Origin: a virus
Lineage: Duplodnaviria > Caudoviricetes
Virus record (IMG/VR): IMGVR_UViG_3300026549_000034
Span: 32,001 to 96,000 of that record
Strand: one strand, 5' to 3'
Length of the DNA stretch: 64,000 bases
In this document: one piece after another, positions 12,917 to 46,912 of the stretch
Numbering within the stretch: the first letter of the stretch is position 1
Layout of the letters: each line of letters starts with the position of its first letter
The notes under the pieces: model-generated
Seen by the model: the letters and a program-made list of their open reading frames with translations, nothing else
The model's database searches: none
Told to the model about the DNA's origin: nothing
Made by a program: the position numbers and the translations under genes

Positions 12917-13369
12917 TTATTTTTTGTTATATACTGGTTTAAAAATTCTATATGTTTCTAAATCATCAGATAAATATGCATATCGAAATGCTGGTAGACG
13001 TCTTTTAAAATTATAATTTTTTATATTAACGTTAGCATATTGTAAAAAATATCCTCCAGATCCCTGCTTTATACAATAGTTACTCTTAAAATGATCTAAA
13101 TGTTTAGCTTTATATCGTATACAATTTACAAAAAAATTTTCTTCTGCATTATTTGTTGTTATATCATCAAATTGTAAATCATTTACATTAATATTATTAT
13201 TTTGTAGACAAATATTTTCTAGTGCAAAAAGATCATCACTATCTATATTATCATTTATAAGATCTTGCATTAGATTACAAAATTCTTTACATGTGAAATT
13301 TTTCTTTTGTGGTATATTTATTTTATGTATATTTAGTTTTTCATATAAACATGTTTTAAGATTTTTCAT
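12917..13369 (-). CDS. capsid-targeting-leader protein
   Basis: MKNLKTCLYEKLNIHKI. Confidence 0.65.
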   Translation of the reverse strand: MKNLKTCLYEKLNIHKINIPQKKNFTCKEFCNLMQDLINDNIDSDDLFALENICLQNNNINVNDLQFDDITTNNAEENFFVNCIRYKAKHLDHFKSNYCIKQGSGGYFLQYANVNIKNYNFKRRLPAFRYAYLSDDLETYRIFKPVYNKK

Positions 13370-26191: not shown

Positions 26192-26297
26192 AACTAAATG
26201 AAAATATATAATATTAAATATTAAATAAAATCTAATTAATTACTATATTATATAATAATTAAAGGAAAAATATTAACAACAAAAAAAGAACAAAATC

Positions 26298-27831: not shown

Positions 27832-28344
27832 ATGAAAAGTATAAAAAACTATATTAATGAAGCATTACAAAATGAAGATTGGTTAAGCAATGCAAAAAAT
27901 AATGAGGAACCATTTGTTAAAGCTGCGCTTGAAAATGAAGGATGGAAAATAAAAGTTGGATCACAAGATGAAGATTTTAAAGGTATTGACTTAAAGGTTG
28001 AAAAGGATGATACTGATGATCAATTTGGTGGAAAATTCAATATAGATGTTAAGGGATGTTCAGCAAAAAATAAAAATTCAAAACGTTTCTTATTTACATG
28101 TAAAAGTTCATCTGGAAAAGAATATCCATACAAAGATAAACACTTTATAGCATTTATTAATTATACAGATAAGACTATTACAATAGTTGCAGATAATGAT
28201 ATTAAAACATTAGCAAGTAAATATAAAGAATATGATAGTCAATCTGGCGATAATTCTAAGTTTATATTATTACCAAAAATGGAGGTTCAAAAACTTGGTA
28301 GAACAATTGATCCATCTGATGAGATTAAATCATTATTAAAATAA
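27832..28344 (+). CDS. PD-(D/E)xK nuclease-like protein with capsid-targeting leader
   Basis: MKSIKNYINE; E...EDFKGID...IDVKG. Confidence 0.65.
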   Translation: MKSIKNYINEALQNEDWLSNAKNNEEPFVKAALENEGWKIKVGSQDEDFKGIDLKVEKDDTDDQFGGKFNIDVKGCSAKNKNSKRFLFTCKSSSGKEYPYKDKHFIAFINYTDKTITIVADNDIKTLASKYKEYDSQSGDNSKFILLPKMEVQKLGRTIDPSDEIKSLLK

Positions 28345-28375
28345 TTAATAAGTTATACAATCATATATCATATAC

Positions 28376-28407
28376 AAAAAGGAATCACTTAAGTGATTCC
28401 TTTTTTT
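28376..28407. terminator. bidirectional intrinsic terminator
   Basis: Perfect palindrome AAAAAGGAATCACTTAAGTGATTCCTTTTT between convergent genes. Confidence 0.85.
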
Positions 28408-28447
28408 ATTATAAAAAATAACACAACTTTAATGTATATTGGGCTCA

Positions 28448-29290
28448 TTAATCAATTCTATCTTCATGATACCATTTTGGCCATTTTGATGGACAATTTT
28501 CTAACATAAAATCATAATTACACTTTTGATTAATTTGCCAATTTGTTATATCAATTTTTAAGTTTTTACAATCTTTAAAACATTTTGTTAAACTTATACA
28601 GTTACTTACATTCCAATTTTCTATACCTTTAATTGTTTTTAATGATGTACAACCTTCAAATAATGAAGTTAGATCACCACAATTATCTAGTTTCCAATTG
28701 CTTGTATCACCTACATTTTCTAATGATGTACAATTCTTAAATATTCTTCTAAATATCTCACATTTACTTAAATTCCAATTTGACAAATCAATAGTTTTTA
28801 GTTTAGGACATCTAACAAATAATATGCGAATTTCCGAAAGATTTGAAGTGTCCCAAGTATCTAATCCATTAATTTGTTTTAGAAACATGTTTTGTGAAAA
28901 TATACCATGTAATCCCCATACATTTGACAAATCCCAATTAGTAACATCTATATATTTTAATTGTGTATCTGAAAAAATATTTTCTAATTCACAATTATTA
29001 CAAAACTTCCAATTAGATGCATTAATATATTCTATTTTTCTATCACTATCAAATAAAAATGATAGTTCATCACCACTATTAATTTTTGAAAAATCTATAT
29101 AAGATACATCAACAGGAGATATGGGTGTACCGCTTCCATATATATCTTTTTGTTTTTCTATATATTGTTCTAATTCTGACAGATTTTTAGGTACAAACCA
29201 TGTATGATTAGTATTTACAGATTTAACATTTAATTTTTCATTAATATAAACATTTAATTTTTCATTAATGTGTTGTGTTAAAGATAACAT
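28448..29290 (-). CDS. DUF285/BspA leucine-rich repeat protein with duplicated capsid-targeting leader
   Basis: MLSLTQHINEKLNVYINEKLNV; repeats WDLSN/WDTSN..F..C.SL. Confidence 0.8.
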   Translation of the reverse strand: MLSLTQHINEKLNVYINEKLNVKSVNTNHTWFVPKNLSELEQYIEKQKDIYGSGTPISPVDVSYIDFSKINSGDELSFLFDSDRKIEYINASNWKFCNNCELENIFSDTQLKYIDVTNWDLSNVWGLHGIFSQNMFLKQINGLDTWDTSNLSEIRILFVRCPKLKTIDLSNWNLSKCEIFRRIFKNCTSLENVGDTSNWKLDNCGDLTSLFEGCTSLKTIKGIENWNVSNCISLTKCFKDCKNLKIDITNWQINQKCNYDFMLENCPSKWPKWYHEDRID

Positions 29291-29911
29291 TTATTCTTCT
29301 GATTGTATATTTGTGTTTTCAATTCGTGGATTTACTTCATTACGAACAGCTACAATATCATCAAGCATATCTTGTAAAAGTTGTAAATGTTCTTCTTCAT
29401 CAGCAAGAATTTCTTTACATTTCTTTTCTGTTGTATAATCTTTGAATGATTGTGCAACTTCAATTAAATCTCTATATGTTTCTATTGCACCCATTTCATT
29501 TTCAACATTTTGTAATAATGAATCAAGTACATCTATAACTTGTTTATCATTATTTAAAATATTTTGGTGACCATATTTAGGTGACCATTTAGGTGATATA
29601 TAAGTATGATCTGCTGTCAACCAAGATGCTGGTGATATTGTAATGTCTTCAATTGTTGCTTCAAGTTCACTAAGACGCTGCATTATCCAATATGCATGAT
29701 CTTCAAGTTCATCTTTAGCAGTTTCTTCATATAATTTAACTATTTCTGGTCTACAATTTCCAACAAGCCAATCTCGAACTACTATATATCCATACCATGC
29801 ATTAAATTCCTCTTTAAGTGCATTTTTTAATTTTTCTACGATTACTCTATTTGATTCTGAATCTATCCATGATTCCGTATAAGCTTCATTAATAGTACTG
29901 AATTTTTTCAT
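29291..29911 (-). CDS. ferritin-like (Dps-like/bacterioferritin) protein with leader
   Basis: MKKFSTINE; EEFNAWYGY, DELEDHA, ENEMGAIETY, ILADEEEH di-iron motifs. Confidence 0.85.
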   Translation of the reverse strand: MKKFSTINEAYTESWIDSESNRVIVEKLKNALKEEFNAWYGYIVVRDWLVGNCRPEIVKLYEETAKDELEDHAYWIMQRLSELEATIEDITISPASWLTADHTYISPKWSPKYGHQNILNNDKQVIDVLDSLLQNVENEMGAIETYRDLIEVAQSFKDYTTEKKCKEILADEEEHLQLLQDMLDDIVAVRNEVNPRIENTNIQSEE

Positions 29912-29929
29912 ATTATAATTTTTTGTTTT

Positions 29930-30118
29930 TTATTTATTAGCAAAATACGCTTTTAAAGCATTTTCAGCCTTTTCTCTTGTTTTATATTTTGCTCTCCAAT
30001 ATCCTCGTTTAGGTGTGTTAGTTCCTTTACCGGCGTGTCCTTTAATGCGCCAGTAATCACCAACCTTAACGATAACATCTTCAAGTTGTTCTTGTATATA
30101 TGTTTTAAGATCTTTCAT
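29930..30118 (-). CDS. small basic capsid-targeting-leader protein
   Basis: MKDLKTYIQE. Confidence 0.7.
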   Translation of the reverse strand: MKDLKTYIQEQLEDVIVKVGDYWRIKGHAGKGTNTPKRGYWRAKYKTREKAENALKAYFANK

Positions 30119-30120
30119 TT

Positions 30121-30432
30121 TTAATCAAGAAAATCAGGTAATTTTTGACTTATAAAATCATAATAATTTGAGCAATCATTAGGATATTTTTCTTCCAAAT
30201 ATGCCCAAATAGTATTTAATAATTCTTCAGTTTTATCAAGATGTGCATTCTTTGAAGGATAATCAATGGTTTTTAATATAATATTCATATCATAATCATA
30301 TTTTTCCATTTCTTTCTTTATTTCTTCAATATCTAAATCTTTATTATCAGCTTTAACATTATCCATAATTGTTTTAGCTAATTTATCATCTAATTTCGCT
30401 CCTTCTAATATAAATTCTTTTAAACTTTTCAT
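30121..30432 (-). CDS. capsid-targeting-leader protein
   Basis: MKSLKEFILE. Confidence 0.7.
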   Translation of the reverse strand: MKSLKEFILEGAKLDDKLAKTIMDNVKADNKDLDIEEIKKEMEKYDYDMNIILKTIDYPSKNAHLDKTEELLNTIWAYLEEKYPNDCSNYYDFISQKLPDFLD

Positions 30433-30486
30433 ATTATAATATTTTATAAATTTATTTTTATGTTTCTACTAATATATAAAATCTTT

Positions 30487-31176
30487 TTAACTTAAAATAG
30501 GACGAACCGGCAAGCCAGCACAACGATTATATGTGTATAAATAAATATCATGTCTATCAGCACGCAGGAGGTAAGCATATCTTGGATTATTTATCATAAG
30601 AGATGAAGACCAAACATTAATGTTAGAACCACCATAGTCATCATAATCACCATCACGATCACCAGCAGCTGGAATAAATAAAGTATTGTTATTTGTTTTA
30701 GATGTAAATAGTCTACCATTTAGACCAGATATATCTTGATAATTTGTTATCCATTTATTATTTGTTTCATCCATTAATTCCACAAATTGTTCTCCGTCAG
30801 GTAGTTTATATTTTCCCGTCATATTAGCATTAGCCATGTCATCTTGCATATCTAATTCTAATATATTGTCTGGTTTGCCTGCACCACCCCAGTAATCTGT
30901 TTTATTAGTAGGACAATACTTAGTTAGTTTATCCCAAACACCTTTAGCATATTTATAGTTATCCCAATCACATTTTTTATTATCTGCTGGTTCAATATCA
31001 CCCCACATAAAGTAATTACCATACCAAGATTCGGCGGTAGATCCATGTTTAGCGCCAACATTATATTTGCACCATAAAGTACCTGATGGCAAACCTAAGT
31101 CTACGGTGTTATCTTTACTTATATCAATATTTTTTATATTAAGTTTTTCTGTTATATATGAATGTATTGATTTCAT
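30487..31176 (-). CDS. Bacteroidetes VDLGL-family protein with capsid-targeting leader
   Basis: MKSIHSYITEKLNIKNI; VDLGLPSGTLWCKYNVGA..FIPAAG..WSSS..GLPVRPI. Confidence 0.8.
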   Translation of the reverse strand: MKSIHSYITEKLNIKNIDISKDNTVDLGLPSGTLWCKYNVGAKHGSTAESWYGNYFMWGDIEPADNKKCDWDNYKYAKGVWDKLTKYCPTNKTDYWGGAGKPDNILELDMQDDMANANMTGKYKLPDGEQFVELMDETNNKWITNYQDISGLNGRLFTSKTNNNTLFIPAAGDRDGDYDDYGGSNINVWSSSLMINNPRYAYLLRADRHDIYLYTYNRCAGLPVRPILS

Positions 31177-31190
31177 ATACTTAAGTATAT

Positions 31191-32411
31191 TTATTTTTCT
31201 AACATAAATCTTGTTCCGAGTGCACCATTTATAGCAGCAAATGATCCAGTGAATTTCATTCTACGTCCTTTATACATTACTACAATACCTTCGGCCGCAT
31301 TATATTTGTTTCCTAATGCTTGAAGACGTTTCATACATTTTTCAAGTTTCTCTTTAGCATCAATAGAATCAGAAGCTTCAATTGTCTTAATTAAATTTTC
31401 AGTATCTTGTTTAACTATCTCTATAGTTTTATCTTTAGCCTCAGAATTTACAAATCCTTCTAATTGATCTAATAATTCATTTCCAATTGATAAGAAAAGA
31501 TTATCCATAGGTTCCATAATTTTACCTACAAGTTCTTTTCCACCTTTTTTATCAAGATTATTTAATTCATCAATATGATCTCCATATTTCTTTTTAAGTT
31601 CACGTAAATTAACTGATTTATCACCATTACATAAACGATTAAAAATTAGTTCATCATCTTTACACCAGTCAGGAGCAAACTTTTTAAATCTTGATTTTTT
31701 CCAATCTTCAATTGAAGTATCAGTAGTTAAACCTTCATCATCCCAAAGTTTAGATATTTCCTTTGTAAATTTTTCTGCGAACTTGATACCTTCTTCAAGA
31801 TTCTTTATCATTAAATCTGGACGTGGTTTGGCTTCATCTATATCTTCAGCAGCTTTATATAATTCATCAACATGACCTTCTACATCTTCCTTTTCAATCC
31901 ATGCAAAATTACCTTTTTTATCAGTTCCTTTTTCCCATATAGTATATCCATGAAATGCTACACGATCTTTAGCATAAGGCATAATATTTGTTTTACCAGC
32001 TATAATGCATTCACAATTTATAATTTTGCGGTGATTTTCATCAGGATTGAAATATTCTTTACCTACTTTAGGAAAAATTTGTTCAATAATCTTACCAGCT
32101 GTCATAAATACTTTCTTTTGATGTTCTTTTCCATCCCAACGAGCATCAAGATCTTTTAATAAAATACCGCCTTGTTCAGAATTTCGTTCAGTATTATTAC
32201 GAATGAATATAATTTCTCCATCATTATTCATTGAAGCACTAATATTCATTCCATCAAGTTTTTCCTTAAGATGTTCGACTTTACCTTTAAATAATGAATC
32301 AACTAATTCTATTAAATCATTAGCAGTAAAATCTGTATAATCAAAAGGATGAGCCATGTGTCCACCAGCACCACCTTCAAAAAGCATTATATATCTGGAT
32401 AAATTAATCAT
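31191..32411 (-). CDS. ligase/nucleotidyltransferase-like protein with leader
   Basis: MINLSRYIMLFE then GGAGGHMAHPFD; EKLDG (motif I-like), EGIVV (motif IV-like), MKFTG (motif V-like). Confidence 0.6.
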   Translation of the reverse strand: MINLSRYIMLFEGGAGGHMAHPFDYTDFTANDLIELVDSLFKGKVEHLKEKLDGMNISASMNNDGEIIFIRNNTERNSEQGGILLKDLDARWDGKEHQKKVFMTAGKIIEQIFPKVGKEYFNPDENHRKIINCECIIAGKTNIMPYAKDRVAFHGYTIWEKGTDKKGNFAWIEKEDVEGHVDELYKAAEDIDEAKPRPDLMIKNLEEGIKFAEKFTKEISKLWDDEGLTTDTSIEDWKKSRFKKFAPDWCKDDELIFNRLCNGDKSVNLRELKKKYGDHIDELNNLDKKGGKELVGKIMEPMDNLFLSIGNELLDQLEGFVNSEAKDKTIEIVKQDTENLIKTIEASDSIDAKEKLEKCMKRLQALGNKYNAAEGIVVMYKGRRMKFTGSFAAINGALGTRFMLEK

Positions 32412-32423
32412 AATTATTTTATT

Positions 32424-32705
32424 TTAATATTTTGTTTGTACTTTTTCAATATCATCGCTAAATCCAAATTCTGACAATTCATTAGCAGTAAATACTTTAG
32501 AAGCTTCTTTGTATAAACTTATATATAATGATTCATATTCCGCACGTTTCCATTTATCTGTCTCATGATCATTTTTATATACATATGCTAATGCAAATAA
32601 AATATTTTCTATATTAGCTATATTTAATTTTAATGAAACAAATTCACTATCATTTTTATTAACTGTATTTTTCTTAACTTCTAATAATGTTTTTAAATCT
32701 TTCAT
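32424..32705 (-). CDS. capsid-targeting-leader protein
   Basis: MKDLKTLLE. Confidence 0.65.
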   Translation of the reverse strand: MKDLKTLLEVKKNTVNKNDSEFVSLKLNIANIENILFALAYVYKNDHETDKWKRAEYESLYISLYKEASKVFTANELSEFGFSDDIEKVQTKY

Positions 32706-32735
32706 AAAATTTTGTTAATAATCAATATTTTTTGT

Positions 32736-32969
32736 TTAAAATGGTTTTTGCTTTAATGATTTTAATTTTGGAAGAAGCTTCTTTAACTCAGTTGACTCCC
32801 AGCCTGTCTTTTCATAATGATCATCTTCAATAAAATGAATGAAGGAGTTTATAAATACTTTAAGTCCCTTTTCATAATAAAGATCATATAATTTGTCTGA
32901 AACTTCAGTATTATAGTCAGAATAATCTTTACCAGCTTCACTTAATAAAATATCTTTAATATTTTTCAT
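32736..32969 (-). CDS. capsid-targeting-leader protein
   Basis: MKNIKDILLSE. Confidence 0.65.
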   Translation of the reverse strand: MKNIKDILLSEAGKDYSDYNTEVSDKLYDLYYEKGLKVFINSFIHFIEDDHYEKTGWESTELKKLLPKLKSLKQKPF

Positions 32970-32996
32970 TATTATTAGTTGCTATTTATTTATAAT

Positions 32997-33569
32997 TTAT
33001 TTTGATCCTTTAATATATTTACCTGATACTTTTAAGTTTTTGAATTGCTTTACAACTACATCTTTTATCATTATATTATTTTTACCAATACCTACTTGAA
33101 CAAGTATCAAACATGCATCAGGACCCATTTTCTTTTGTTTATCTGATATATATATTCCTTCATTATCTAGTTTATGATAACATTTAATTTCAAAACATAA
33201 ATCACCTAAAGATAAATCATATGAATCATAATCCCCATTATCTAAATTATCATGTGTAATCATTTTTTCAAAATCACTACCAAAATAATCTTCAGATTCA
33301 ATTTCTTTATTTAATAAAAAGCTTAAATATTTTTCAATTAATATTCCTGCTGCAGAATATAATTCATATATTTCTTTATTATCTTCTTCTGAATTTGTTA
33401 AAAAATTAATATTTGCTCCATCAACATTAACGGTTAATATATTATTTGAAGATATAAGTTTTGATAATTTATTAGTTAATTGAATTTCTATATCATTCAT
33501 ATTATCATGCAAATTATTCAAAAATTTACTTTCATTTATATTCATTATGTAATTATTTAATGATTTCAT
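32997..33569 (-). CDS. PD-(D/E)xK nuclease-like protein with leader
   Basis: MKSLNNYIMNINE; GILIE...YDL...FEIKC. Confidence 0.6.
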   Translation of the reverse strand: MKSLNNYIMNINESKFLNNLHDNMNDIEIQLTNKLSKLISSNNILTVNVDGANINFLTNSEEDNKEIYELYSAAGILIEKYLSFLLNKEIESEDYFGSDFEKMITHDNLDNGDYDSYDLSLGDLCFEIKCYHKLDNEGIYISDKQKKMGPDACLILVQVGIGKNNIMIKDVVVKQFKNLKVSGKYIKGSK

Positions 33570-33591
33570 ATAATTTAATTTATTATTTTAT

Positions 33592-34044
33592 TTATTTTAT
33601 ATAACTTTGAGCTTTTTCATAAGTAAAATCGGCACCTTTTCCTACTAAAGTTAGATATTTATTTAAATATTCTTCAGATTTACCTTTCATATATATTTTA
33701 CAAAATTGTAAATCTGATAATTTTTTTACACCATTATAATTATAAGCATCATAGTAAAGATCATCATATTTCATAAAGAAATGATAACTTGTACCACCAT
33801 CATCTAGTAAATAATATTCAACATCATCATAAAATGGTTCATCTTCTAAGAATGATACACAATTACAAACAGTCAAACAATATCCATTATCAATTAAGTT
33901 TAATCTTGTTTGCTTAGCATTATTTGCAAGAGCTCCAGATATATCATCATACCAATCTTCTTCAGACCAAAAAGTTTCTAAGAAATTTGATAATGTACCA
34001 TAGTGTGAAATAGATTCAAATATATATTCTTTAAGTGATTTCAT
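33592..34044 (-). CDS. putative Cys-His-Asp (papain/transglutaminase-like) protein with leader
   Basis: MKSLKEYIFE; NGYC...HFF...YYDA. Confidence 0.55.
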   Translation of the reverse strand: MKSLKEYIFESISHYGTLSNFLETFWSEEDWYDDISGALANNAKQTRLNLIDNGYCLTVCNCVSFLEDEPFYDDVEYYLLDDGGTSYHFFMKYDDLYYDAYNYNGVKKLSDLQFCKIYMKGKSEEYLNKYLTLVGKGADFTYEKAQSYIK

Positions 34045-34047
34045 AAT

Positions 34048-35190
34048 TTATTTAATATTTTTTAAAATATTATTATATTTTTCATCAATATCTTTATAAT
34101 TAATAGTTATTCTTTCATCATTAATTTTTACTATTGCATTATGATAATTACACATATTTTGAATTGGTATTAGATATTGTTTAACTATTTTCCAAATATA
34201 ACCTGTTTTTACTTTAATATCCTTTTTATCAAAATCATAATTAAAAGTTTCATTAAGAATATTTAATATATCATCATATACAATATATTTAATTTTCTTT
34301 TGAAATGTTGGACCTTCTTCCCAGCATTTATATCTGTTTATTGATAAATATGCAGCAATAATTATATTATAAATAGTATCTTTATCATAGAAAATATTAT
34401 GTGGTGATTTAATATCTATATCTTTAATATGCAAACTTTCAATAATATATTCTTTAAGAGTCATTATTTTATGTTCTTTAATTATGTTTTGTAATTGATT
34501 TTTAAACTCATCAAATGCATTAATAAAATCATTAAACATAGAACCTACACCTTTAGGCATTATCTTCTCAAAAGCTGATTTATCTTTATTCAATATGGAT
34601 TTACGAACAGCGGTTCCTGATACACCTTCAGTACGACCTTTACCGGTATTTACCTTAAGTTTTCCTATAAGTATATTTGGTAATGTTTTTCCTGATTTGA
34701 ATTCGACTTCGAGTTCAGTATATTTAGCTAAACCTTCAACGTTTTTCTCATAATCATCTTTACGATCATCACCGCACATCCAATCTCCTACTTCATATTC
34801 ATCTGAATGTTCAGTAATAAATTGATTATATTTTCCTAATGCATCATAAATATTAACTACAGGAACAACATCAATAATATTCTTATTAGCTTTCTTAACT
34901 ATTTCAAGTTCTTTATCAATCAATTCATTTGTAAAAGGGCGTTTAAGAAGTTCTTTTTCTTGTTCAGTTAAGTCACTTGTTGGATTATCAATATATTCTA
35001 TAACTTTATTGACAGATTCATCAGTCCAAGATTTACTTGCTATTTTAATTCCTTTCTTTTTACGTTCAATAGTCTTATTTGATGAATTAATTCTATATAT
35101 AATACATGGACCATCACCTTCATTAATCATATTCAAATGACCTTGTGTAAATGGTTGGAAGCGCCCGATCGCTATATTAAGTTTTTTCAT
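34048..35190 (-). CDS. cytidylyltransferase-like (HIGH) nucleotidyltransferase fused to a C-terminal domain with an internal leader
   Basis: GRFQPFTQGH, RPF, CGDDR, VSGTAVR; internal MTLKEYIIE at residue 243. Confidence 0.8.
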   Translation of the reverse strand: MKKLNIAIGRFQPFTQGHLNMINEGDGPCIIYRINSSNKTIERKKKGIKIASKSWTDESVNKVIEYIDNPTSDLTEQEKELLKRPFTNELIDKELEIVKKANKNIIDVVPVVNIYDALGKYNQFITEHSDEYEVGDWMCGDDRKDDYEKNVEGLAKYTELEVEFKSGKTLPNILIGKLKVNTGKGRTEGVSGTAVRKSILNKDKSAFEKIMPKGVGSMFNDFINAFDEFKNQLQNIIKEHKIMTLKEYIIESLHIKDIDIKSPHNIFYDKDTIYNIIIAAYLSINRYKCWEEGPTFQKKIKYIVYDDILNILNETFNYDFDKKDIKVKTGYIWKIVKQYLIPIQNMCNYHNAIVKINDERITINYKDIDEKYNNILKNIK

Positions 35191-35194
35191 AATT

Positions 35195-36376
35195 TTAATG
35201 TATTATTTTATAATCAGCCATAAAATGCGTTGGATAAATTCCACCATCTTTAGGTCTTATGTTAAATGTAAAATTAATATTAGATAAGTTTACTTCAATA
35301 TCTATTCTTTTAGCATTACCATCATTAGGATATTTTATAACAGCGCTTTTTATTGTATTACCAATAAATTTATTCAAATCATCTTCAGATCGCAAATCTA
35401 AATAATATACTTTAGATTTTACTAAATGAACAAGAATAAATCCATATCCTATTACTGATTTTGCAAATTCAAAAAATTTATATTTATTAATATCTTTAGT
35501 GATATCAACATTTAGTTTATTTGATTTTATTTTTCTTTCTTTATTTACATTATAATTATTAAATATATTTAAAAACAGTTGTGCATCAATATTAAATATA
35601 TTTAAAATTTCATTTCCAATTTCCCCAAATTCTTTTATATCATTATTTATAAATGCTGAATGTGGAAATACATCTTTATTATTTATTCCGGCATTTATAA
35701 ATGTTACTTTATCCCCATATTTCAATGACAAACATATGTCTTCTTGTGAATTTAATTTATCTTTATTCTGAATAGTTATTGTAACATCAGTAACCGCTTT
35801 ACCAATATTAAATTTATCAGATTTTGAATATTTTTTTCCTTCTTTAGGAAATGCATATAATTGACCATTAATTAAAGTTAAAGGGCGTTTTGTATTTTCT
35901 GCACCCATTGCTTTTGGGGTATCACATAAAATAATTTTTTTAGGATTATTACTTATTATCTTAAATAATTTATTTTGATATTCTTCATTATTTGTAAAAT
36001 TTTTAATAAAATCATCTTCAAATGCATTACCTTTATTTTTTGATGATAATCCGTTAATATATCCACTATAAGGACCTTTTGATATATCAGACCATTTAAA
36101 GCCAAATTCTTTTACTATATTATTAAATTCATTTTGTGCATTTTTATCAGTAATATCAATTTGTTTTAGTTTATTTACTGCTTCATCTGAAATTTCATTT
36201 GATTCAATTTCTGCATTTTTACCCAATTTAACTTTTTTATCTTTTATTAGAGTTTGAATAACTGCTCTTGGATAAAAATTAATATCATTATTATGTATAT
36301 GATTCCATTGCCCACTCATAGTTGCTTCAAAAATATTAACTACATGTTCAACAATATAATCTTGTAATCGTTTCAT
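35195..36376 (-). CDS. restriction-endonuclease-like PD-(D/E)xK protein with leader
   Basis: MKRLQDYIVE; NKGNAFE...VTDVTI...LSLKYG. Confidence 0.6.
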   Translation of the reverse strand: MKRLQDYIVEHVVNIFEATMSGQWNHIHNNDINFYPRAVIQTLIKDKKVKLGKNAEIESNEISDEAVNKLKQIDITDKNAQNEFNNIVKEFGFKWSDISKGPYSGYINGLSSKNKGNAFEDDFIKNFTNNEEYQNKLFKIISNNPKKIILCDTPKAMGAENTKRPLTLINGQLYAFPKEGKKYSKSDKFNIGKAVTDVTITIQNKDKLNSQEDICLSLKYGDKVTFINAGINNKDVFPHSAFINNDIKEFGEIGNEILNIFNIDAQLFLNIFNNYNVNKERKIKSNKLNVDITKDINKYKFFEFAKSVIGYGFILVHLVKSKVYYLDLRSEDDLNKFIGNTIKSAVIKYPNDGNAKRIDIEVNLSNINFTFNIRPKDGGIYPTHFMADYKIIH

Positions 36377-36431
36377 TATATTATATATTTAACTATATAT
36401 TATATATAAAAATAACTAATTTTTTATATAT

Positions 36432-36468
36432 AAAAAATTGAACCTATTTTAAAATAGATTCAATTTTA
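36432..36468 (-). terminator. intrinsic terminator
   Basis: AAAATTGAACCTATTTTAAAATAGATTCAATTTT hairpin downstream of 36484..36936. Confidence 0.55.
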
Positions 36469-36483
36469 TATTTTATTCTTTAA

Positions 36484-36936
36484 TTATTTTTTATCTTCTT
36501 TAATTGGAATTTTAGGTATAGGTACAATATTTAATGCAGGAACATTTACTTGTACACCTTTTATATCTTCCATATTCTTTGGTGTATTTGATTCTCCAAA
36601 GTTTTCTTTATAATATTTATCTAAATCAATGCTATCTTTTGAAATATATGGTATTGGAACAATTGTTAAAAGAGGAACTTTAAGTTGTGCAGTCTTTCCA
36701 TTAGCATCAACAAATTTAATTTTGCCATCAGATTCAACAATATTTGGATGATCTAACTTAGGATATTCTTTAATCAAGTCTTCCAAAAAATCTTTAGTAA
36801 ATACTCCAGGTAATTGTTCAAGCTTTTGGATATGATTATTCATCAATTCATCAACAGTCATATCTGCTGCATCAACTACTTTTACACTGTTTGGCAATAT
36901 AAACTTACCGATTTTTTCTCTAATTCTATTAAACAT
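36484..36936 (-). CDS. hypothetical protein (no leader)
   Basis: 150 aa; internal repeat VP.L.IVPIP x2. Confidence 0.65.
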   Translation of the reverse strand: MFNRIREKIGKFILPNSVKVVDAADMTVDELMNNHIQKLEQLPGVFTKDFLEDLIKEYPKLDHPNIVESDGKIKFVDANGKTAQLKVPLLTIVPIPYISKDSIDLDKYYKENFGESNTPKNMEDIKGVQVNVPALNIVPIPKIPIKEDKK

Positions 36937-36968
36937 ATTTAATTTTAAATAAATAATTCTTAATATTT

Positions 36969-37277
36969 TTATATTGTTATATTCATTTCATCTAATTCAT
37001 CTTTTGCCCATTGTGCTAATACATAAACAATATTATTTTTAAATTGATTAATAGTTTTCTTATTCCATTCGCATTCATCAGTTAAATAATCAAATGCATC
37101 TTTAACTAATTGATCATTTTGTTTTTTAGCCATAGCTTTCATATCTTTAATGAATTCTGAACGAGAATCATAAAAATCTTCTTTATAATGTTCATCCCAC
37201 CAATCAGCTAAATCCTGAGTCATTTCTTCTAAATCATCTTGAGATGATTCTTTAATAAAAAGTCTAATATCTTTCAT
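36969..37277 (-). CDS. capsid-targeting-leader protein
   Basis: MKDIRLFIKE. Confidence 0.7.
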   Translation of the reverse strand: MKDIRLFIKESSQDDLEEMTQDLADWWDEHYKEDFYDSRSEFIKDMKAMAKKQNDQLVKDAFDYLTDECEWNKKTINQFKNNIVYVLAQWAKDELDEMNITI

Positions 37278-37288
37278 ATTTTTATTAA

Positions 37289-37939
37289 TTAATATTTATT
37301 TTTTCTAACTTTATCATTTTTCTTAATATCATTTTCTGGTATTAAAATATATTCTTTTTTACCAGATTTTTTTACTTCATAATCATTATTTTCTATTAAA
37401 TCATTTAAATCATTATAACTAATCATATATAACTTAAATGAATTTTTCCTTTTATATACTTGAATGAAATAATCCCATGTCTTAATTTCTTCATCAAGGA
37501 ATAATATATATCTTTTTCCGTCTTTTAATTTACTTTTAATAAAATCAATGTCATCTAATGATAATGAATAATTGTGATTTTTTGATGACAAAGTATTTTT
37601 AACATCTATCAAAGTATTATTATATTTAATATCCCATTTTTCATTTCTGTCTTGTTCAATAGTTGAATATGTACAATCTTTACCAATTATTTCCCCTACC
37701 ATTGGTTCTATGCAAGTTTTTGAGAAAATCATTTTCCAAATAGAAATCAATGTTTCATTTGATGGATGATTACTATTAGATAACTCAACTAATTTATTAT
37801 AAAATTCTTCTGGAACAGAATCATTTAAATTATAATTATTATCAAACAATTTAGAACGATCAAATTTTTTCACTAAATCACGTAATTCTTCAATTTCATT
37901 ATTTAATTTTTCATAAATAAAACTTTTAATATCTTTCAT
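37289..37939 (-). CDS. PD-(D/E)xK nuclease-like protein with leader
   Basis: MKDIKSFIYEKLN; IE..QDRNEKWDI..IDVKN; C-terminal YILIP resembles FILLP in 27832. Confidence 0.6.
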   Translation of the reverse strand: MKDIKSFIYEKLNNEIEELRDLVKKFDRSKLFDNNYNLNDSVPEEFYNKLVELSNSNHPSNETLISIWKMIFSKTCIEPMVGEIIGKDCTYSTIEQDRNEKWDIKYNNTLIDVKNTLSSKNHNYSLSLDDIDFIKSKLKDGKRYILFLDEEIKTWDYFIQVYKRKNSFKLYMISYNDLNDLIENNDYEVKKSGKKEYILIPENDIKKNDKVRKNKY

Positions 37940-37961
37940 AATTTATAATTGATTTTTAATG

Positions 37962-38606
37962 TTATTCATCCCAAGCTTTTATAACTTTTAAATTAGGGAT
38001 ATTTAAGTTTCTTGCTGCACTAACATTTTTATGATCATCATCTACAAATACAACTTTATCATATTTTCTACATATATCCTTAAGAACTATTGCTTTCTTT
38101 TCAGCATCTGTTTTTCCAGGATATTGTTTTATGTCATCATTTACTGCATGTGAAAATGTCTCTTTGAATGAATCACCAAGTTCTTTTAATGCACCGTCTT
38201 CATCTCTAAATTTCAAAAAATCTTTTATAGCTTTCTTAATTATATCTTCACATCCGCGTGCAGTCAAAAAACAAAAATCATATCCTGCTTTAATATAGTC
38301 ATCCATTATTTTTAGATTCTTAATCAATGGTGTTCCAGATATGATTGAATTATATACTTTAACTGGATCTCTAAAATCTCTATAGTCAAATAATGATTTC
38401 TTGTTAGGGTCTTCCGCATCCGGATCTTTAGCAAATTCTTCGGTAGATAACTGTGTTTCTGTTCCATCTTCATTCTTTTTATATATAGACATTAATGATG
38501 GATTTACTTTTAAAATAGTATTATCAATATCAAATACTATTAATCCTTTAATTGAATCAGGTAAATCTTTAACATGTTCTAAAATGTATACTTGTAAAGA
38601 TTTCAT
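37962..38606 (-). CDS. HAD-superfamily phosphatase with leader
   Basis: MKSLQVYILE; VFDIDNT, LTARG, K, FVDDD. Confidence 0.8.
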   Translation of the reverse strand: MKSLQVYILEHVKDLPDSIKGLIVFDIDNTILKVNPSLMSIYKKNEDGTETQLSTEEFAKDPDAEDPNKKSLFDYRDFRDPVKVYNSIISGTPLIKNLKIMDDYIKAGYDFCFLTARGCEDIIKKAIKDFLKFRDEDGALKELGDSFKETFSHAVNDDIKQYPGKTDAEKKAIVLKDICRKYDKVVFVDDDHKNVSAARNLNIPNLKVIKAWDE

Positions 38607-38621
38607 AGTTTAAATCAATTT

Positions 38622-38894
38622 TTATTTTATTCTTGAAATTATTTCAAAATCGTTTTCTTCAGCTTTATTAACGAAACATTCATTTACTTTAAGGTTTTCA
38701 ACCTTTTTAATTATTTCATCAACCTTTTCAGGAGTCAAATCCCAATCATAATATATATCACTTATTTCTGATATATCTTCTATTAAATATGCTCTAGGTT
38801 CTTCTCTCAAATAATAAGATACCATTGTATATTTAATATTGTTTAAATTATATGATTTTGCTTCATTAATTAAATAACTTTTAATATCTTTCAT
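38622..38894 (-). CDS. capsid-targeting-leader protein
   Basis: MKDIKSYLINE. Confidence 0.65.
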   Translation of the reverse strand: MKDIKSYLINEAKSYNLNNIKYTMVSYYLREEPRAYLIEDISEISDIYYDWDLTPEKVDEIIKKVENLKVNECFVNKAEENDFEIISRIK

Positions 38895-38923
38895 AATTTA
38901 AATTGTATTTTTAATTAAAAATA

Positions 38924-38950
38924 AAAAAACCTATATTAATATAGGTCTTT
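38924..38950 (-). terminator. intrinsic terminator
   Basis: AAAAAACCTATATTAATATAGGTCTTTT hairpin. Confidence 0.55.
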
Positions 38951-38974
38951 TATAAATATAAATTAATGTTTCAC

Positions 38975-39403
38975 TTATTTTTCGGGTTCATAAAAATATA
39001 AATCATTATATAAAGAATTATCTATATAATATATATGATCTATCAAATAATATTTAGCATTTAAAAATTGACCACTATATATATGTATTTGATTTTGTGA
39101 CGAATTTTTATCATCGGAACAATATATTACACCTTGACTATTTTTTGTTATTTTTTCCTTACCAAGCAAATCAAAATCAGCATCTTTATCCTTAATTGTA
39201 TATACCATTGAATCTTTTGGTATATATATGTCATATAATGGTTTTAATTCCTTTTCAGTAAATGGCGATATGACTTTATCATTTAACACTTTACTATTAA
39301 ATGTAACAAATTGTCCTTTGCCAAACTTTTCAAATTTAGATGTTAAAGGTTTTATGTTTTTTACATTTAGTTTTTCTAAAATTTTATCTTTTAATGTCTT
39401 CAT
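38975..39403 (-). CDS. capsid-targeting-leader protein
   Basis: MKTLKDKILEKLNVKNI. Confidence 0.7.
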   Translation of the reverse strand: MKTLKDKILEKLNVKNIKPLTSKFEKFGKGQFVTFNSKVLNDKVISPFTEKELKPLYDIYIPKDSMVYTIKDKDADFDLLGKEKITKNSQGVIYCSDDKNSSQNQIHIYSGQFLNAKYYLIDHIYYIDNSLYNDLYFYEPEK

Positions 39404-39411
39404 AATGAAAA

Positions 39412-39846
39412 TTAATTAAATATTATTTTTCCTTCTCGTTGAACATTAGCTAATGAATCAGAACTATGCATACAATTTCTCATATTATCTTTACCATACT
39501 TATCTCTAAAATGGTGTTTGATTTCCTTCATTAATGAAATTGTATTTACTCCTGGATATTTGTCATAATCAAATGTATATTCAGCAGCTATAATTTCTCC
39601 AGAACCCATATATTTACAAAGATCATCATACCAATCTTCCTTTGAATGACAACCATATAAATTTTTAATTTGTTTATCTGTCAGTTTCATTGGATTAGTG
39701 TGATCATACATTATAAAACCTTTCTTATTTATATATTCAAATATTTCATCTTTATATTGTAGAAATCCTGGCTTAATTATAATAAATGCTTTACAATTTT
39801 CCGGAGTAGTCAAATATTCTATAATATAATCAAATAAGTTCTTCAT
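39412..39846 (-). CDS. ndk: nucleoside diphosphate kinase-like protein with leader
   Basis: MKNLFDYIIE; IIIKPG, Y..H, YM.SG.I, RNCMHSSDS..N..RE. Confidence 0.8.
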   Translation of the reverse strand: MKNLFDYIIEYLTTPENCKAFIIIKPGFLQYKDEIFEYINKKGFIMYDHTNPMKLTDKQIKNLYGCHSKEDWYDDLCKYMGSGEIIAAEYTFDYDKYPGVNTISLMKEIKHHFRDKYGKDNMRNCMHSSDSLANVQREGKIIFN

Positions 39847-39866
39847 GATATTAATATATAAATTTT

Positions 39867-40241
39867 TTAATCTTTGTAATATAATCCTTCAGGACCCCAT
39901 AAAAATACCGCAGTCTCACCATGTTCACCCATAGCCCCAACAGCCCATAAATTTTTTTCTCCATATTCTTTTATATAAGAATCAATATCAAATTCATTTT
40001 CAATCCATTCCATAAAATATCCTGATGAATCATATTTCTTTACAACATATTTTAATAATGAAGAAATAGTATGTGGTTTATCATAATCAATTATTGGGCA
40101 AGTAGCTATAATTTCCCACGGTTCACCATTATAATCATAAGCAGTTGTATTTAATTCTGCCTGTTTTAGTTGTTTATGATTATTCGTTTTTATGTTCTTA
40201 ACATCTAACTTTTCTTGTAATATTTGCTTTAATGTTTTCAT
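39867..40241 (-). CDS. capsid-targeting-leader protein
   Basis: MKTLKQILQEKLDVKNI. Confidence 0.7.
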   Translation of the reverse strand: MKTLKQILQEKLDVKNIKTNNHKQLKQAELNTTAYDYNGEPWEIIATCPIIDYDKPHTISSLLKYVVKKYDSSGYFMEWIENEFDIDSYIKEYGEKNLWAVGAMGEHGETAVFLWGPEGLYYKD

Positions 40242-40771
40242 ATAAAAAACTTCATATTTTTAAGTGTACTATATTCTTTATCTGATAAATATATTCTAAT
40301 TATTGAATCTTTATATGATCGCCATATATACATATAATTATTATATAATGTACCTATACTGTTATTTGTAAATTGTATATAATATTTGTCACGCTTTAAA
40401 TAAAATTTAGATAATTCATTATTTATTTTTTCACAAATATCTTTAGATAATATTGGTGAATCATCTTCATTAAATAAATTTATTTTTACTCTATTACGAT
40501 TTATGTTAACATCTGGTATAAATAAATTTCCTTTATTATAGAATGAAAAATATAATCTTAATGAATTGTTTTTATCAGTACTAATTTCGATATCTTTTAA
40601 GTTATATTTATTATACAATTTTTGAATTTGACCAAAAAACATATTAAAATCATATTTATATAAAGTCTCCGAAGGTAACACTAATACTTCTTCAGTTGAA
40701 TAATCAAGTTGTGTATCTTTCATATCTCTTGATATTTTAAGTTTTTCAGCTATTTCTGAATATTTTTTCAT
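40238..40771 (-). CDS. capsid-targeting-leader protein
   Basis: MKKYSEIAEKLKI. Confidence 0.6.
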   Translation of the reverse strand: MKKYSEIAEKLKISRDMKDTQLDYSTEEVLVLPSETLYKYDFNMFFGQIQKLYNKYNLKDIEISTDKNNSLRLYFSFYNKGNLFIPDVNINRNRVKINLFNEDDSPILSKDICEKINNELSKFYLKRDKYYIQFTNNSIGTLYNNYMYIWRSYKDSIIRIYLSDKEYSTLKNMKFFI

Positions 40772-41175
40772 AATTCACGTTTAACAATTATATTTATTAA
40801 TTCTTTTTCTTTATCTGTTAATATTATATCATATTTATCTGAATTTTTGTTGTTTTGAGTCATTACATATATATTTTTTATACAATTAGCTCCTCGCGCA
40901 AAATCATAATAAATACCATCTTTTACTAAAACATAATGATTTCCACACATTGCATCATCATCGCTAAGTAAATTTTGTGCACATTCAGAAAAATCAAAAT
41001 ATATGTCTAATGCATATTTGTTAAACATTTTAGGAAATTCATTTATAATTAACTTACATATTTTTTTACAATCCCCATATTTTTGTTTGTCTATACATTC
41101 TTCCCAAGTATTTGTTTTATAATATGACATTAAATATTTTTTAACCTTTTCTATTTGTTTATTAGATAAACTCAT
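40768..41175 (-). CDS. putative Cys-His-Asp protein (no leader)
   Basis: YGDCKKI...NHYVL...YYDFA. Confidence 0.55.
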   Translation of the reverse strand: MSLSNKQIEKVKKYLMSYYKTNTWEECIDKQKYGDCKKICKLIINEFPKMFNKYALDIYFDFSECAQNLLSDDDAMCGNHYVLVKDGIYYDFARGANCIKNIYVMTQNNKNSDKYDIILTDKEKELINIIVKREL

Positions 41176-41213
41176 ATTTTTGTCTTTTTAATTAAAATAG
41201 TATTTATGACTAA

Positions 41214-44200
41214 TTATTTAATAAGTATTTTTTCTTTAATTTTTTTATTATAAATATGTGATTTATCTAATGAATATTTTACATTAATATTATAGTATCC
41301 TTTGTTGTATATATTGTCATTTTTTGGTATTGATAATATTGACATGTTTGAATTACCATATATCTTAACATTGTTGCTTATACCAAATGATATAGGTTGT
41401 ATGTTCCATTTAGAATATACATCTAAGTTTGTTGGAAGCATTTTATTATTTTCTAATGAACATATTATCAAATCATCACTATTAAAATGATTTTTGCCGT
41501 TACTATCAATAAACTGCATTCTATTAATTAAAAATATATTATCGGAACTTGCATGTCTTAATATATACTGATTTCCTGAATTACCTGTAAATTCAATAGT
41601 ATTTTGATATTTATTTATGTCTAATATTGATGCAAATTTATCACAAGTATCTTTAGAAATAAATACTATATAATATTGTTGTTTATCATGCATCAAGAAC
41701 ATATCATAGTCATATTTTTCATTAAACTGAATATATGAATCATAAACTTCCTTAATTATCTCGCCTTCATCATAATCTATAGTTGTATCATTATTACTTG
41801 TTGTAATATTATTTACTTTATTGCATGTTATTGTAAATTTCTTATAGAAGAATTCTTTATATAAATCAACTTCATTACTTGTACTATCATAAGGTATTGG
41901 ATGTTCAATTGTTGAAATCTTATATAAATGCGGTGTAATTGTTACAGGATTGACTATAGATGAATTACATGAAAAGAACAATAATACTTTATATTCATTT
42001 CCTGATAATGTAATATATCCATGATTAATATATTCATTTACTATATTGTCACGTTCATCAAATATACATAATTTTACACATACAGCCCTATTAGTAGAAT
42101 CACATTCACAGTCTAATTTATATAGTCCCTTTAATCCAGTAAAGTCTTTACATAAATAGTTTATATAAGTATATTCATCATAGTCATCAGTAGGTGATTT
42201 TATTTGTAATGTATTTTGATCAATCTTATATGTCTCATGATAATTATATTCTATAGTACCATCTGAATTTATTTTAGACCAGTAGAATGAAGGATTTTGA
42301 ATATAAGCCATATCTAATGAATCAATATTTTTTCCATTGTTTAAGAAATATTGATAATAGTTTGATTCTTCAAGTCTAACATTAGGTATAGGATCAAGTT
42401 CATTACCTGTTATAGTATCTTTAAGACCTTTTACTGTGCAATAATATTTACCATCATTACGTTTTTCAAGATCAGAACAATTTTGTGAATTATAATAGCC
42501 AAATATATTTAATATTTTTGTTTGGTTCTTATAATAAAAATTAACTTTTAAATATATATTATTTGTATTATTATTGTAGTATTTAATAAATTCATTAGTT
42601 GTAGGTATAAAATCATTATATTGATTATTAGTCTTTTTTACAAAGCTATATGAGAATGACAATATATGTTTTTCACCTTTATATAAATAAACATAATTGT
42701 TGTTTTCAACATAAATATTTTTAATATCTACATTTAAATTATTTTGTTCATATTTATTTTCATTAGAAGCAAAGGATGCATAATCTTTATATATACAATA
42801 TCCTATGGAAATTTCATCATTATCTTCTATTATATTATACAATGATTCTGCATTTATGTTATTTTCATCTATATCATAGTTTGCAGTTCTACCAATAATA
42901 TAATATAATGCTTTACCTTCAATGATTTCTGGTTTATTACTACTTATTGTATATGCGTCTTGTCCATCTTTAGTTGATACACTTTCATCATCTATAATAC
43001 CAGATACTGTAAAAGTATTTGTGTATTTTTGTTTGTCAAATAATAAGTTTTTATATCGTACTGTGATGTTATTATAAAATGCTAATATATCTTGTCTATC
43101 ATCTTCAGTATCACCTTTTACATCTAACTTGAATAGATTATAAATATGTACATTATTAAGATATTTGTATGTATTTGATATATTAATTTTTTCTTGATAT
43201 CTACTTACTAAGTCACCGATTTTTGATAATCTAGTATCATCACCATCATTATCATATAAATAATCCCAATATCTAATTCCGAAAGATATATCATTTACAT
43301 TGACAAAATCTGGAAACCACATATAAGAATTAAAATATACCTTGTCATCAGTTATAGACTTTATTTGAGAAAAGTTTGAAAATATTTTTGATGGTTCATT
43401 ATAGAAATCATATGTATTTATATAGTTAGTTATGTCTAATTTTGTCTTATTGTCATCATTATAATTTACAAGTATACCATATTCATTATCCGAATCATCC
43501 TCTTTATGTTGTTTAAGGACATTATTTAGTTCATTAATGTCATTACACCAATATTGATATTGTAATGTTCCAATATGAATGTCAAGTTCACCAAGTTTAA
43601 TTATAAAGTCATAATCATACCAAACATTATTTACACACAAATATAAAGTAAATTCAGAATTTACATATCTTCCTAATGGTTTTTTAGCAAAATATTCTAT
43701 CAATTTAGGATATATTACAAATGAGTTATATATATAATTAGATGTTTGTATAAAGTTAAAAGAATTCTTGTATATAATTGAATTAGTATTTTTTTCTTTT
43801 AATATTAATATACAACTACAATATGTATTGTCATTTGTTATTATTTTAATAGGTACATTTATACAAGTATCATTAATTAAATACCAATCATAATTTTCTG
43901 AATTTTCATATATTTCATCAAGTTCTTCTTTAGTACTATCTTCTATTGCTTTATTAGATAATCTATACTCATTAAAATGCTCATCAACATAATGATATTG
44001 ATGTGTAATGAATCTTAAGTTTGATTTTGGAAATTCTACATTTATATTATTTTGAATTTGTAGATTAATTGTATTTTCATGTAAATGTGTCTTACAGTAA
44101 GAAAACAACTTAATGTCATTAGTATATACTTTATGTTCAAGCGAAATATTTTTTAAGTTAACAAATATTGGCAAGAAATATTTTCTATAATAATATGCTA

Positions 44201-45368: not shown

Positions 45369-45440
45369 TATATAATTATGATATATGTTTTTATTATTTA
45401 AAAATATTTTTTGTTTTTGTTTTTCATATTAAATTATGAC

Positions 45441-45470
45441 AAAAAAAAAGACTTCATAAGAAGTCTTTTT
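45441..45470 (-). terminator. intrinsic terminator
   Basis: AAAAAGACTTCATAAGAAGTCTTTTT hairpin. Confidence 0.75.
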
Positions 45471-45496
45471 GTATATATTAAATGTTTAACTATTGT

Positions 45497-45748
45497 TTAA
45501 TCATACCAAGTAATATATTTAAATCTCTTTAGTTTATCTATATATTTTATTAAAGTAATAAGTCGTACATCAATAAGCTGAATAAATATTACTAAAACTG
45601 CATTTCCCTTAAATAATATTTTTGGTAAGCATTTATTCAAAATACCTTCTGAAGCATAATCATATTTAATGTCTCCAGTTGTATTTAATTTTTCATATCT
45701 ATATGTTCTATATGTAAGACTATTCTTAATATCCACCTTAATATTCAA
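45497..45748 (-). CDS. small hypothetical (possibly structural) protein
   Basis: 83 aa. Confidence 0.6.
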   Translation of the reverse strand: MNIKVDIKNSLTYRTYRYEKLNTTGDIKYDYASEGILNKCLPKILFKGNAVLVIFIQLIDVRLITLIKYIDKLKRFKYITWYD

Positions 45749-46811: not shown

Positions 46812-46850
46812 AAAATCTAATAATATTTTTTAATTAATATTTTTCTATTT

Positions 46851-46912
46851 TTAAATTGTGTTACTATTAAAGAAATTTTGTTTTCTTTAAATGGTGTTAC
46901 TATTAAAGAAAT
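46851..46912. repeat. 26-bp direct repeat (1 mismatch) duplicating the 3' end of the neck gene
   Basis: TTAAAT(T/G)GTGTTACTATTAAAGAAAT at 46851 and 46887. Confidence 0.8.

Follow-up and report, generated by a model that had tools for sequence, protein, structure and literature searches.

Many unrelated proteins of a giant uncultured phage of ruminant guts share an N-terminal leader resembling the T4 capsid targeting sequence

In bacteriophage T4, IPI, IPII and IPIII, which are internal proteins, and the protein Alt carry a capsid targeting sequence (CTS) that is removed by the prohead protease gp21 (Mullaney and Black 1996; PMC9026906, PMC3012670, PMC5694885). This peptide, MKTYQEFIAE in IPII and IPIII, undergoes a single gp21 cut and is enough for foreign proteins to be packaged (PMC8442874, PMC3012670). 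In IPIII, amber-suppressor mutagenesis has traced targeting for the most part to residues 4 and 7, and processing to 8 and 10, and Asp at position 10 blocks cutting while targeting stays intact (PMC9026906). The present work deals with a similar leader found in a 64,000-nucleotide stretch of DNA (the window), which corresponds to bases 32001-96000 of a 193,181-bp IMG/VR virus record (IMGVR_UViG_3300026549_000034, hereafter G000; 26.7% GC, about 68% complete). The leader, termed tag, consists of ten N-terminal residues with Glu at residue 10, and it is present on nearly every gene from 40771 down to 28448, as well as on the + strand gene 27832-28344 (coordinates are those of the window unless otherwise stated). 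The best-supported explanation, which we consider likely, is that the tag is a T4-type capsid targeting sequence, i.e. a cleavable propeptide, belonging to a greatly expanded system.

Other phages are relevant to this comparison. In the giant phages phiKZ, 201phi2-1 and SPN3US, ejection or inner-body proteins are processed by a gp21-related protease (PMC5694885, PMC7411985). The system proposed here would resemble theirs in the large and diverse protein mass of the head and in an S77-type protease removing propeptides after Glu; however, the propeptides of that group are mostly 80-160 residues long and end in the motif S/A/G-x-E, whereas here ten residues are shared and the motif is I/L-x-E. 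The Dar proteins of phage P1 (DarA, DarB and Hdf) are large enzymes that the capsid carries and delivers together with the DNA, and DarB combines methyltransferase and helicase domains. A comparable type of cargo is encoded in G000 outside the window (185617-189714 of the record, + strand): a 1365-aa protein with a ResIII helicase domain, a GTG start and the tag (M)KSIIEFINE, which recalls packaged anti-restriction proteins such as DarB. On the other hand, P1 Dar proteins are incorporated through ordered protein-protein interactions and have no common cleavable N-terminal tag.

G000 is a giant uncultured phage of ruminant guts. It encodes a gp6-like baseplate wedge gene and UvsX, and searches with the latter revealed relatives at 80-82% identity, among them the near-complete genomes G001 (376 kb) and G002 (410 kb), whose UvsX is 81-82% identical; a 392.8-kb record (G004) was discarded as a relative because it is a different phage with a single pattern match. 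The tag block has been found in cattle, sheep and goat gut metagenomes of many studies, and also in two metatranscriptome libraries, both from one sample, which say nothing on timing.

The N-termini of twenty open reading frames (ORFs) of the window read M-K-x-[LI]-x-x-[YF]-[IL]-x-E, Glu being exactly the tenth residue, and 13 of these ORFs lie inside 27832-40771. Seven further ORFs (29291, 31191, 32424, 32736, 32997, 38622 and 40238) bear variants of 9-13 residues, most of which keep [IL]-x-E, or something close to it, at their end. The about 27 tagged proteins of which an earlier note on this DNA had spoken are therefore confirmed as 20 with I/L8 and Glu10 plus seven indel variants. The 13 N-termini that it quoted from 27832-40771 are all present as written, and the extra sites that it listed at 2436, 9031, 9225, 9584, 12677, 13369 and 46811 are real gene starts, although at 2436 the ATG lies inside a longer ORF call.

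At the genome level, the pattern M[KL]x[LIVM]xxx[ILVM]xE at residue 1 was searched over 265 crude ORF calls in G000, and it matched 41 of them against 0.33 expected. The expectation derives from 2000 trials in which residues 2-15 of every N-terminus were shuffled, or the pooled N-terminal composition was drawn (mean 0.33 matches, maximum 4), so that the motif, whose lack of excess over control N-termini the earlier note had named as a refutation, is enriched more than 100-fold. The Lys-initiated core of the tag is 205-fold commoner at position 2 than at internal protein positions, and the position-weight score is bimodal, with 42 ORFs above 18 bits and a gap below. In all, about 50 of the approximately 265 genes of G000 are tagged.

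Position 4 of the tag is L/I in all 41 tagged ORFs, and position 7 is Y/F in 32 of them though the search pattern left it free. Positions 8 (I/L in 39/41) and 10 (E in 41/41) were both constrained by that pattern; pattern-independent support for their conservation comes from the ORFs starting with MK, which are hydrophobic at positions 4, 7 and 8 in 37 of the 43 cases with E10 and in 12 of the 69 without it. The four positions of lowest entropy (4, 7, 8 and 10) are exactly the T4 residues for targeting (4 and 7) and processing (8 and 10). Besides, MKTYQEFIAE itself scores 10.3 bits on the G000 matrix, whereas the best untagged N-terminus of G000 reaches 5.5, and the likeness to the T4 leader claimed from the first inspection of the window holds. 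Among 13 orthologues of the gene at 37289 (49-96% identical), M1, K2 and E10 are invariant and I8 is nearly so, while positions 3, 5, 6 and 9 drift. In the tagged proteins of G001 conservation ends abruptly after Glu10; in G000 many tags (about half) run on past it as K-L-N-[IV]-K-N-I, on DUF285 and on unrelated bodies.

The relatives supply the other components that such a system would need. G001 has 39 tagged ORFs, and the DNA form of the tag occurs 27 times in G001, where the reversed control has no match, and 73 times in G002, where that control has one. In both genomes a Peptidase_S77 (gp21-family) domain is encoded directly upstream of the gene for a Gp23-family capsid protein, and three further tag-bearing records all have the S77 protease. 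No match to protease, capsid or portal was found in G000, a 68%-complete fragment, and for this reason its head module is placed on the missing part of the genome and its protease is deduced from the relatives. Thus, the T4-type prohead protease, whose absence had been named as a possible refutation, is missing from the record itself and present in its relatives. In G001 the prohead protease (212552-214165 of that genome) is fused to a scaffold-like C-terminal half made of about eight tandem 12-residue repeats (N-W-V-V-E-E-F-A-P-E-V-Q), each with W-[VI]-x-E-E-F. Its N-terminus is a ten-residue peptide ending in I8-x-E10, and the G001 capsid protein contains A-I-H-E-I-H-E|S near residue 41. These [IV]-x-E sites suggest that likely protease substrates present the same sites as the tag. 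A protease-scaffold fusion is annotated in phage PTm1 too, and the annotation of phage pT24 mentions only a prohead core scaffold. When the G001 fusion protein and the first 40 residues of a tagged HAD protein were modelled as a complex, the score was 0.00, below the mark, which is no evidence either way.

A link to the head is given by the 65-aa tagged protein at 9028-9225, in which the tag is followed by a copy of residues ~63-120 of the G001 capsid protein (ATPMNT-G-GNP...GSGDIP) and by a Lys/Arg-rich tail; homologues exist in G001 and in the cultured Tenacibaculum phage pT24. At least one tagged protein is thereby tied to the head. The nearest cultured relatives by capsid protein are pT24 and Sphingomonas phage PAU (~34-35%), Tenacibaculum phage PTm1 (38%) and the Lak phages (31%). 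The strict DNA pattern has one match in pT24 and none in PTm1 or PAU, and a matrix search of pT24 revealed about seven diverged tag-like N-termini, whose genes are annotated as hypothetical, with no proteome note. Among the matches listed in a scan of IMG/VR, AT-rich contigs bearing 5-11 tagged ORFs in 13 kb are numerous.

The cultured T4-like cyanophage S-CREM2 allows the tag to be compared with a virion proteome, in which 52 of 221 ORFs were detected by mass spectrometry (PMC10665884, Table 3). In its genome (174,876 bases) the tag pattern has four matches, all at gene starts, and the reversed control has none. The four genes are ORF6 (SAM hydrolase), ORF13, ORF14 (kinase, GTG start) and ORF154 (cytidylyltransferase), and all four products belong to the virion proteome (PMC10665884), for which the chance is ~0.003. 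The untagged neighbours gp5 and gp7-gp11 were not detected in the virion; several other detected virion proteins have no tag, which means that the tag predicts packaging, yet other routes exist. The authors of that study suggested encapsidation, with no mention of a targeting sequence and without mapping N-termini (PMC10665884), and a full-text literature search found no paper tying such tags to cyanophages, one general T4 review aside. S-CREM2 thus offers a parallel in which enzymes beginning MK-x-[FL]-x-x-F-L-x-E are found in purified virions, although it has only four tagged genes.

The genomic context of the tagged genes is also distinctive in G000. The block belongs to a co-oriented gene run on the - strand (28448-47723) that begins with a head-tail adaptor-like gene, and that strand carries 31 of the 41 tagged genes and 50 of the 224 others (p = 9e-11). 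The earlier statement that + strand genes lack the leader is then largely correct, but some tagged genes are on the + strand. A promoter-like element, TTTGAAT-N17-(A)CTATATT, located about 30 nt before the ATG, accompanies 36 of 224 untagged genes and one of 41 tagged genes, and in this single case it is 70 nt away. It has 37 copies in G000, all but one on the + strand (e.g. 26243-26280, upstream of 26298), precedes replication-type and small genes, and is abundant in G001 too; it probably represents a class of early or middle promoters. The test for a T4-type late promoter (TATAAATA) is weak in G000 (6/41 tagged vs 9/224 other genes), and in G001 tagged and other genes are alike in this respect. 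Related to the stability of the gene set, homologues in G001 exist for 6 of 45 tagged and 99 of 220 untagged G000 genes (p = 4e-5), and the tagged set turns over fast between relatives.

Several observations weigh against a T4-type capsid targeting sequence. First, about 18% of all genes are tagged, far above any packaged set known to us, and they include housekeeping-type enzymes (nucleoside diphosphate kinase (NDK), HAD, ferritin-like) for which the gain from few packaged copies is hard to see. Second, the mature tagged proteins are not basic, their median pI of 5.8 being equal to that of other proteins, and the K-L-N-[IV]-K-N-I extension is not accounted for by a simple cut after E10. Third, G000 itself holds no protease, capsid or portal gene, so the protease is borrowed from relatives; the S-CREM2 correlation comprises four proteins, one of them with a single peptide, from a paper in which N-termini were not mapped; and in G001 the promoter and strand contrasts of tagged genes are non-significant, for which reason the genomic context is treated as supportive only.

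The sheer number and metabolic nature of the tagged proteins, the lack of the charge bias typical of DNA-embedded internal proteins and the conserved extension on part of the set would fit a shared docking or regulatory peptide unrelated to the capsid. Such a tag might bind one chaperone, assembly factory, or degradation or timing factor for all of its carriers, and its likeness to T4 would then be convergent. We regard this as unlikely, because the conserved positions coincide with the residues mapped in T4, and the motif stops at an invariant Glu10. Moreover, the protease and scaffold have matching [VI]-x-E sites, the motif tracks virion proteins in S-CREM2 and one tagged protein copies a segment of the capsid protein.

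It is very improbable that the tag is the recognition leader of a modifying enzyme, similar to that of a ribosomally synthesised and post-translationally modified peptide (RiPP) precursor with a radical-SAM maturase, since there is no radical-SAM (PF04055) match in G000 and no maturase near any tag cluster; the only such match in G001 is a 172-aa NrdG-like protein beside a large ORF taken as putative NrdD from its position and N-terminal sequence, and the tag matches the capsid tag of T4. A signal peptide was rejected as well, as the tag has no hydrophobic stretch.

A genome of such low GC content has many ATG AAA starts, and shared gene starts could aid gene shuffling, so the likeness might reside in the DNA or in translation, as a recombination cassette or a translation-start enhancer. 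The codons leave this very little room. Synonymous codons are used at every conserved residue (Lys2, AAA 29/AAG 11; Ile8, ATA 20/ATT 14; Glu10, GAA 30/GAG 11; position 4, TTA/CTT/CTA/ATT/ATA), the 45 nt upstream of tagged genes are unrelated to one another, composition-matched or shuffled N-termini give 0.3 matches, and the same peptide pattern is written with different codons in cyanophages of higher GC. Selection acts on the tag peptide, not on the DNA.

When the bodies were compared by BLAST without their first 22 residues, one family of 12 DUF285 members (all with a long tag in common) and two pairs were obtained, all else being singletons, in agreement with the earlier description of mostly unrelated bodies. 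The families and folds recognised in them include NDK, HAD, ferritin-like, DUF285, AAA_5, ResIII helicase and PD-(D/E)xK, with weak RNA-ligase-like and phosphoribosyltransferase-like matches; most small tagged bodies have no match in PHROG and Pfam searches, and protein-atlas matches for two bodies (scores of 0.85-0.91) are leads only. In the NDK, HAD and ferritin proteins the domain starts 9-16 residues past Glu10, and a nucleotidyltransferase-like body is untagged in G000 and tagged in G001, the alignment beginning at residue 2 and residue 11, respectively. The tag is therefore a discrete add-on module with its boundary at residue 10/11. Despite the one true family of DUF285 paralogues, there is scarcely any chance that the tagged proteins are a single diverged family with the N-terminal helix as its last remnant, because the bodies span different Pfam families and folds and one body exists in both tagged and untagged form.

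If the tag is a T4-type capsid targeting sequence, its mode of action can be outlined by analogy with T4 IPIII. The amphipathic N-terminal tag, hydrophobic at positions 4 and 7, would dock the new protein on the scaffolding core during prohead assembly, and the gp21-family (Peptidase_S77) prohead protease would cut after I8-x-E10. The freed tag would then exit the head, whereas the mature protein would stay inside with the DNA and probably leave with it at infection. From these parallels we infer that the tagged proteins of G000 are packaged, cleaved and ejected, and delivery of the cargo would take place at injection; G000 probably sends a very large load of proteins along with its DNA. Since the tag is a self-contained module of ten residues, any gene acquiring it would become a cargo gene, and in the ruminant-gut clade the set, a mere handful in T4, S-CREM2 and pT24, may have grown to 40-70 or more genes per genome.

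The likeness to T4 comprises the ten-residue N-terminal peptide, hydrophobic at 4 and 7 with I/L at 8 and Glu at 10, its presence on unrelated carriers, near-complete relatives with a gp21-family protease and a gp23-family capsid protein, and a tagged set that is hypervariable between relatives like the internal-protein loci of T-even phages. Unlike the handful of T4, there are 40-70 or more tagged genes per genome here, and the cargo consists of ordinary enzymes, a nuclease-fold protein, the 1365-aa helicase protein and the 12-member DUF285 family. Furthermore, these proteins are not notably basic, many tags have the KLN[IV]KNI extension, the protease is fused to a scaffold, and packaging and cleavage of the tagged proteins are putative. 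T4 has more than three CTS-type proteins, and the diversity of internal proteins among T-even phages was already known. Consequently, of the idea that a three-protein system of T4 had been expanded, the large expansion stands and the number three does not: it is a large quantitative expansion of a known principle, in which the scale, the types of cargo and the reach of the tag beyond T-even phages are new.

A wider proposal, which we make tentatively, is that the virion may be a pre-loaded delivery vehicle from which dozens of tagged proteins, either all in each head or sampled across the burst, are released into the host with the DNA. The cargo would then be composed of nuclease-fold enzymes, the large helicase protein, enzymes of nucleotide metabolism and a fast-evolving library of DUF285 binders, and nuclease-fold cargo could spare the phage DNA were that DNA hypermodified. 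Host take-over and counter-defence would begin before transcription of any phage gene, and the tag would be a general predictor, from sequence only, of packaged proteins across the T4 superfamily. Should the tag act as it does in T4, the genomes of uncultured giant phages would suffice to read their injected proteome, which otherwise needs purified virions. Head cargo could reach about 1/6 of the genes of a phage, ordinary enzymes and nucleases included, and this would change the view of what the opening minutes of an infection can involve in the gut and the rumen. Owing to their fast turnover, the tagged genes are candidates for host take-over and counter-defence functions, and the tag could be a natural portable tool to load foreign proteins into phage heads beyond T4. 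Table 1 collects the genes of the block and the other tagged genes of the window.

Table 1. Genes of the tag block and related genes of the window, with their N-termini and assignments.
Position	Strand	Length (aa)	N-terminus	Feature	Evidence
2436-2987	+		MKNIKEYINE	Tagged when started at second ATG	
7985-9031	-	348	MKSLNRFIRE	Tagged gene	
9028-9225	-	65	Tag	Tag, copy of capsid N-terminal segment, basic tail	BLASTP E 2e-9
9222-9584	-	120	MKKIIQYISE	Tagged gene	
12147-12677	-	176	Long tag	Tagged DUF285-family paralogue	
12917-13369	-	150	MKNLKTCLYEKLNI	Tagged gene	
27832-28344	+	170	MKSIKNYINE	Tagged gene; body without assigned function	
28448-29290	-	280	MLSLTQHINE	Tagged DUF285 (BspA-like repeat) gene	PF03382, E 2.5e-25
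29291-29911	-	206	MKKFSTINE (9-residue variant)	Ferritin-like protein; full tag on G001 homologue	
29930-30118	-	62	MKDLKTYIQE	Tagged gene	
30121-30432	-	103	MKSLKEFILE	Tagged gene	
30487-31176	-	229	MKSIHSYITEKLNIKNI (long tag)	Tagged gene; family search negative	
31191-32411	-	406	MINLSRYIML (degenerate, position 10 not Glu)	Weak RNA-ligase-like match	
32424-32705	-	93	MKDLKTLLE (9-residue variant)		
32736-32969	-	77	MKNIKDILLSE (11-residue variant)		
32997-33569	-	190	MKSLNNYIMNINE (13-residue variant)	Only weak nuclease-like leads	
33592-34044	-	150	MKSLKEYIFE	Tagged gene	
34048-35190	-	380	Untagged	Cytidylyltransferase-like gene	
35195-36376	-	393	MKRLQDYIVE	Tagged gene, phrog_8438 family; paired with cytidylyltransferase-like gene	
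36484-36936	-	150	Untagged	Weak DUF2589 match; within block	
36969-37277	-	102	MKDIRLFIKE	Tagged gene	
37289-37939	-	216	MKDIKSFIYE	Tagged gene; predicted PD-(D/E)xK nuclease-fold body	Predicted structure and motif
37962-38606	-	214	MKSLQVYILE	Tagged HAD-family hydrolase; domain from residue 22	
38622-38894	-	90	MKDIKSYLINE (11-residue variant)		
38975-39403	-	142	MKTLKDKILEKLNVKNI (long tag)	Tagged gene	
39412-39846	-	144	MKNLFDYIIE	Tagged nucleoside diphosphate kinase; domain from residue 19	
39867-40241	-	124	MKTLKQILQEKLDVKNI (long tag)	Tagged gene	
40238-40771	-	177	MKKYSEIAE (loose variant)		
45738-46811	-	357	MKDLINYINE	Tagged gene flanked by gene of 1384-aa protein and adaptor-like gene	
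46887-47723	-		Untagged	Head-tail adaptor-like gene; heads - strand run with tag block	phrog_211, E 2.4e-9

The tagged protein encoded at 37289-37939 is confidently predicted to have a nuclease fold, its body being assigned to the PD-(D/E)xK nuclease superfamily. The predicted model of this body has a pLDDT of 89.7, nucleases of the PD-(D/E)xK fold occupy the first 31 places among its structural matches (Z up to 8.5), and D103, D112 and K114 of the D...D-x-K motif are invariant in the 13 orthologues. The nearest structures include Hjc, the N-terminal domain of Eco15I, NhoI and PvuII, among which NhoI and the Eco15I domain represent methylation-dependent restriction enzymes.

The adjacent cytidylyltransferase-like and phrog_8438 genes at 34048-36376 (- strand) form the same pair that is found in T4-like cyanophages, where the cytidylyltransferase itself begins MKNFFQFLSE. 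In S-CREM2 the cytidylyltransferase is the tagged member, whereas here its N-terminus is untagged and the phrog_8438 neighbour is tagged. Cyanophage SynMITS9220M01 has the same pair at 129065-131478, and there the tag of the transferase is followed by a basic stretch rich in Lys, Ala and Pro. The gene at 34048-35190 contains an internal tag-like MTLKEYIIE (MTLKEYIIESLHIKDIDIK) at residue 243, with an ATG at 34464, and it looks like either a fusion of two genes through stop loss or a gene whose tagged C-terminal protein is made from an internal start.

The DUF285 family has about 45 members in a relative, by tag count only. In the DUF285 gene at 28448-29290 the end of the tag appears twice in tandem (HINEKLNV-YINEKLNV), as though by a short internal duplication. 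Finally, a relaxed DNA pattern of the tag was found at five places in T4 itself, namely the starts of ipII, ipIII and gene 61.1 and two internal sites. Gene 61.1 (NC_000866, 18966-19130, - strand) encodes an uncharacterised protein of 54 aa that begins MKTFKEFIKE, close to the tag of IPII and IPIII, and judging from this N-terminus its product may be an unrecognised head-targeted protein.

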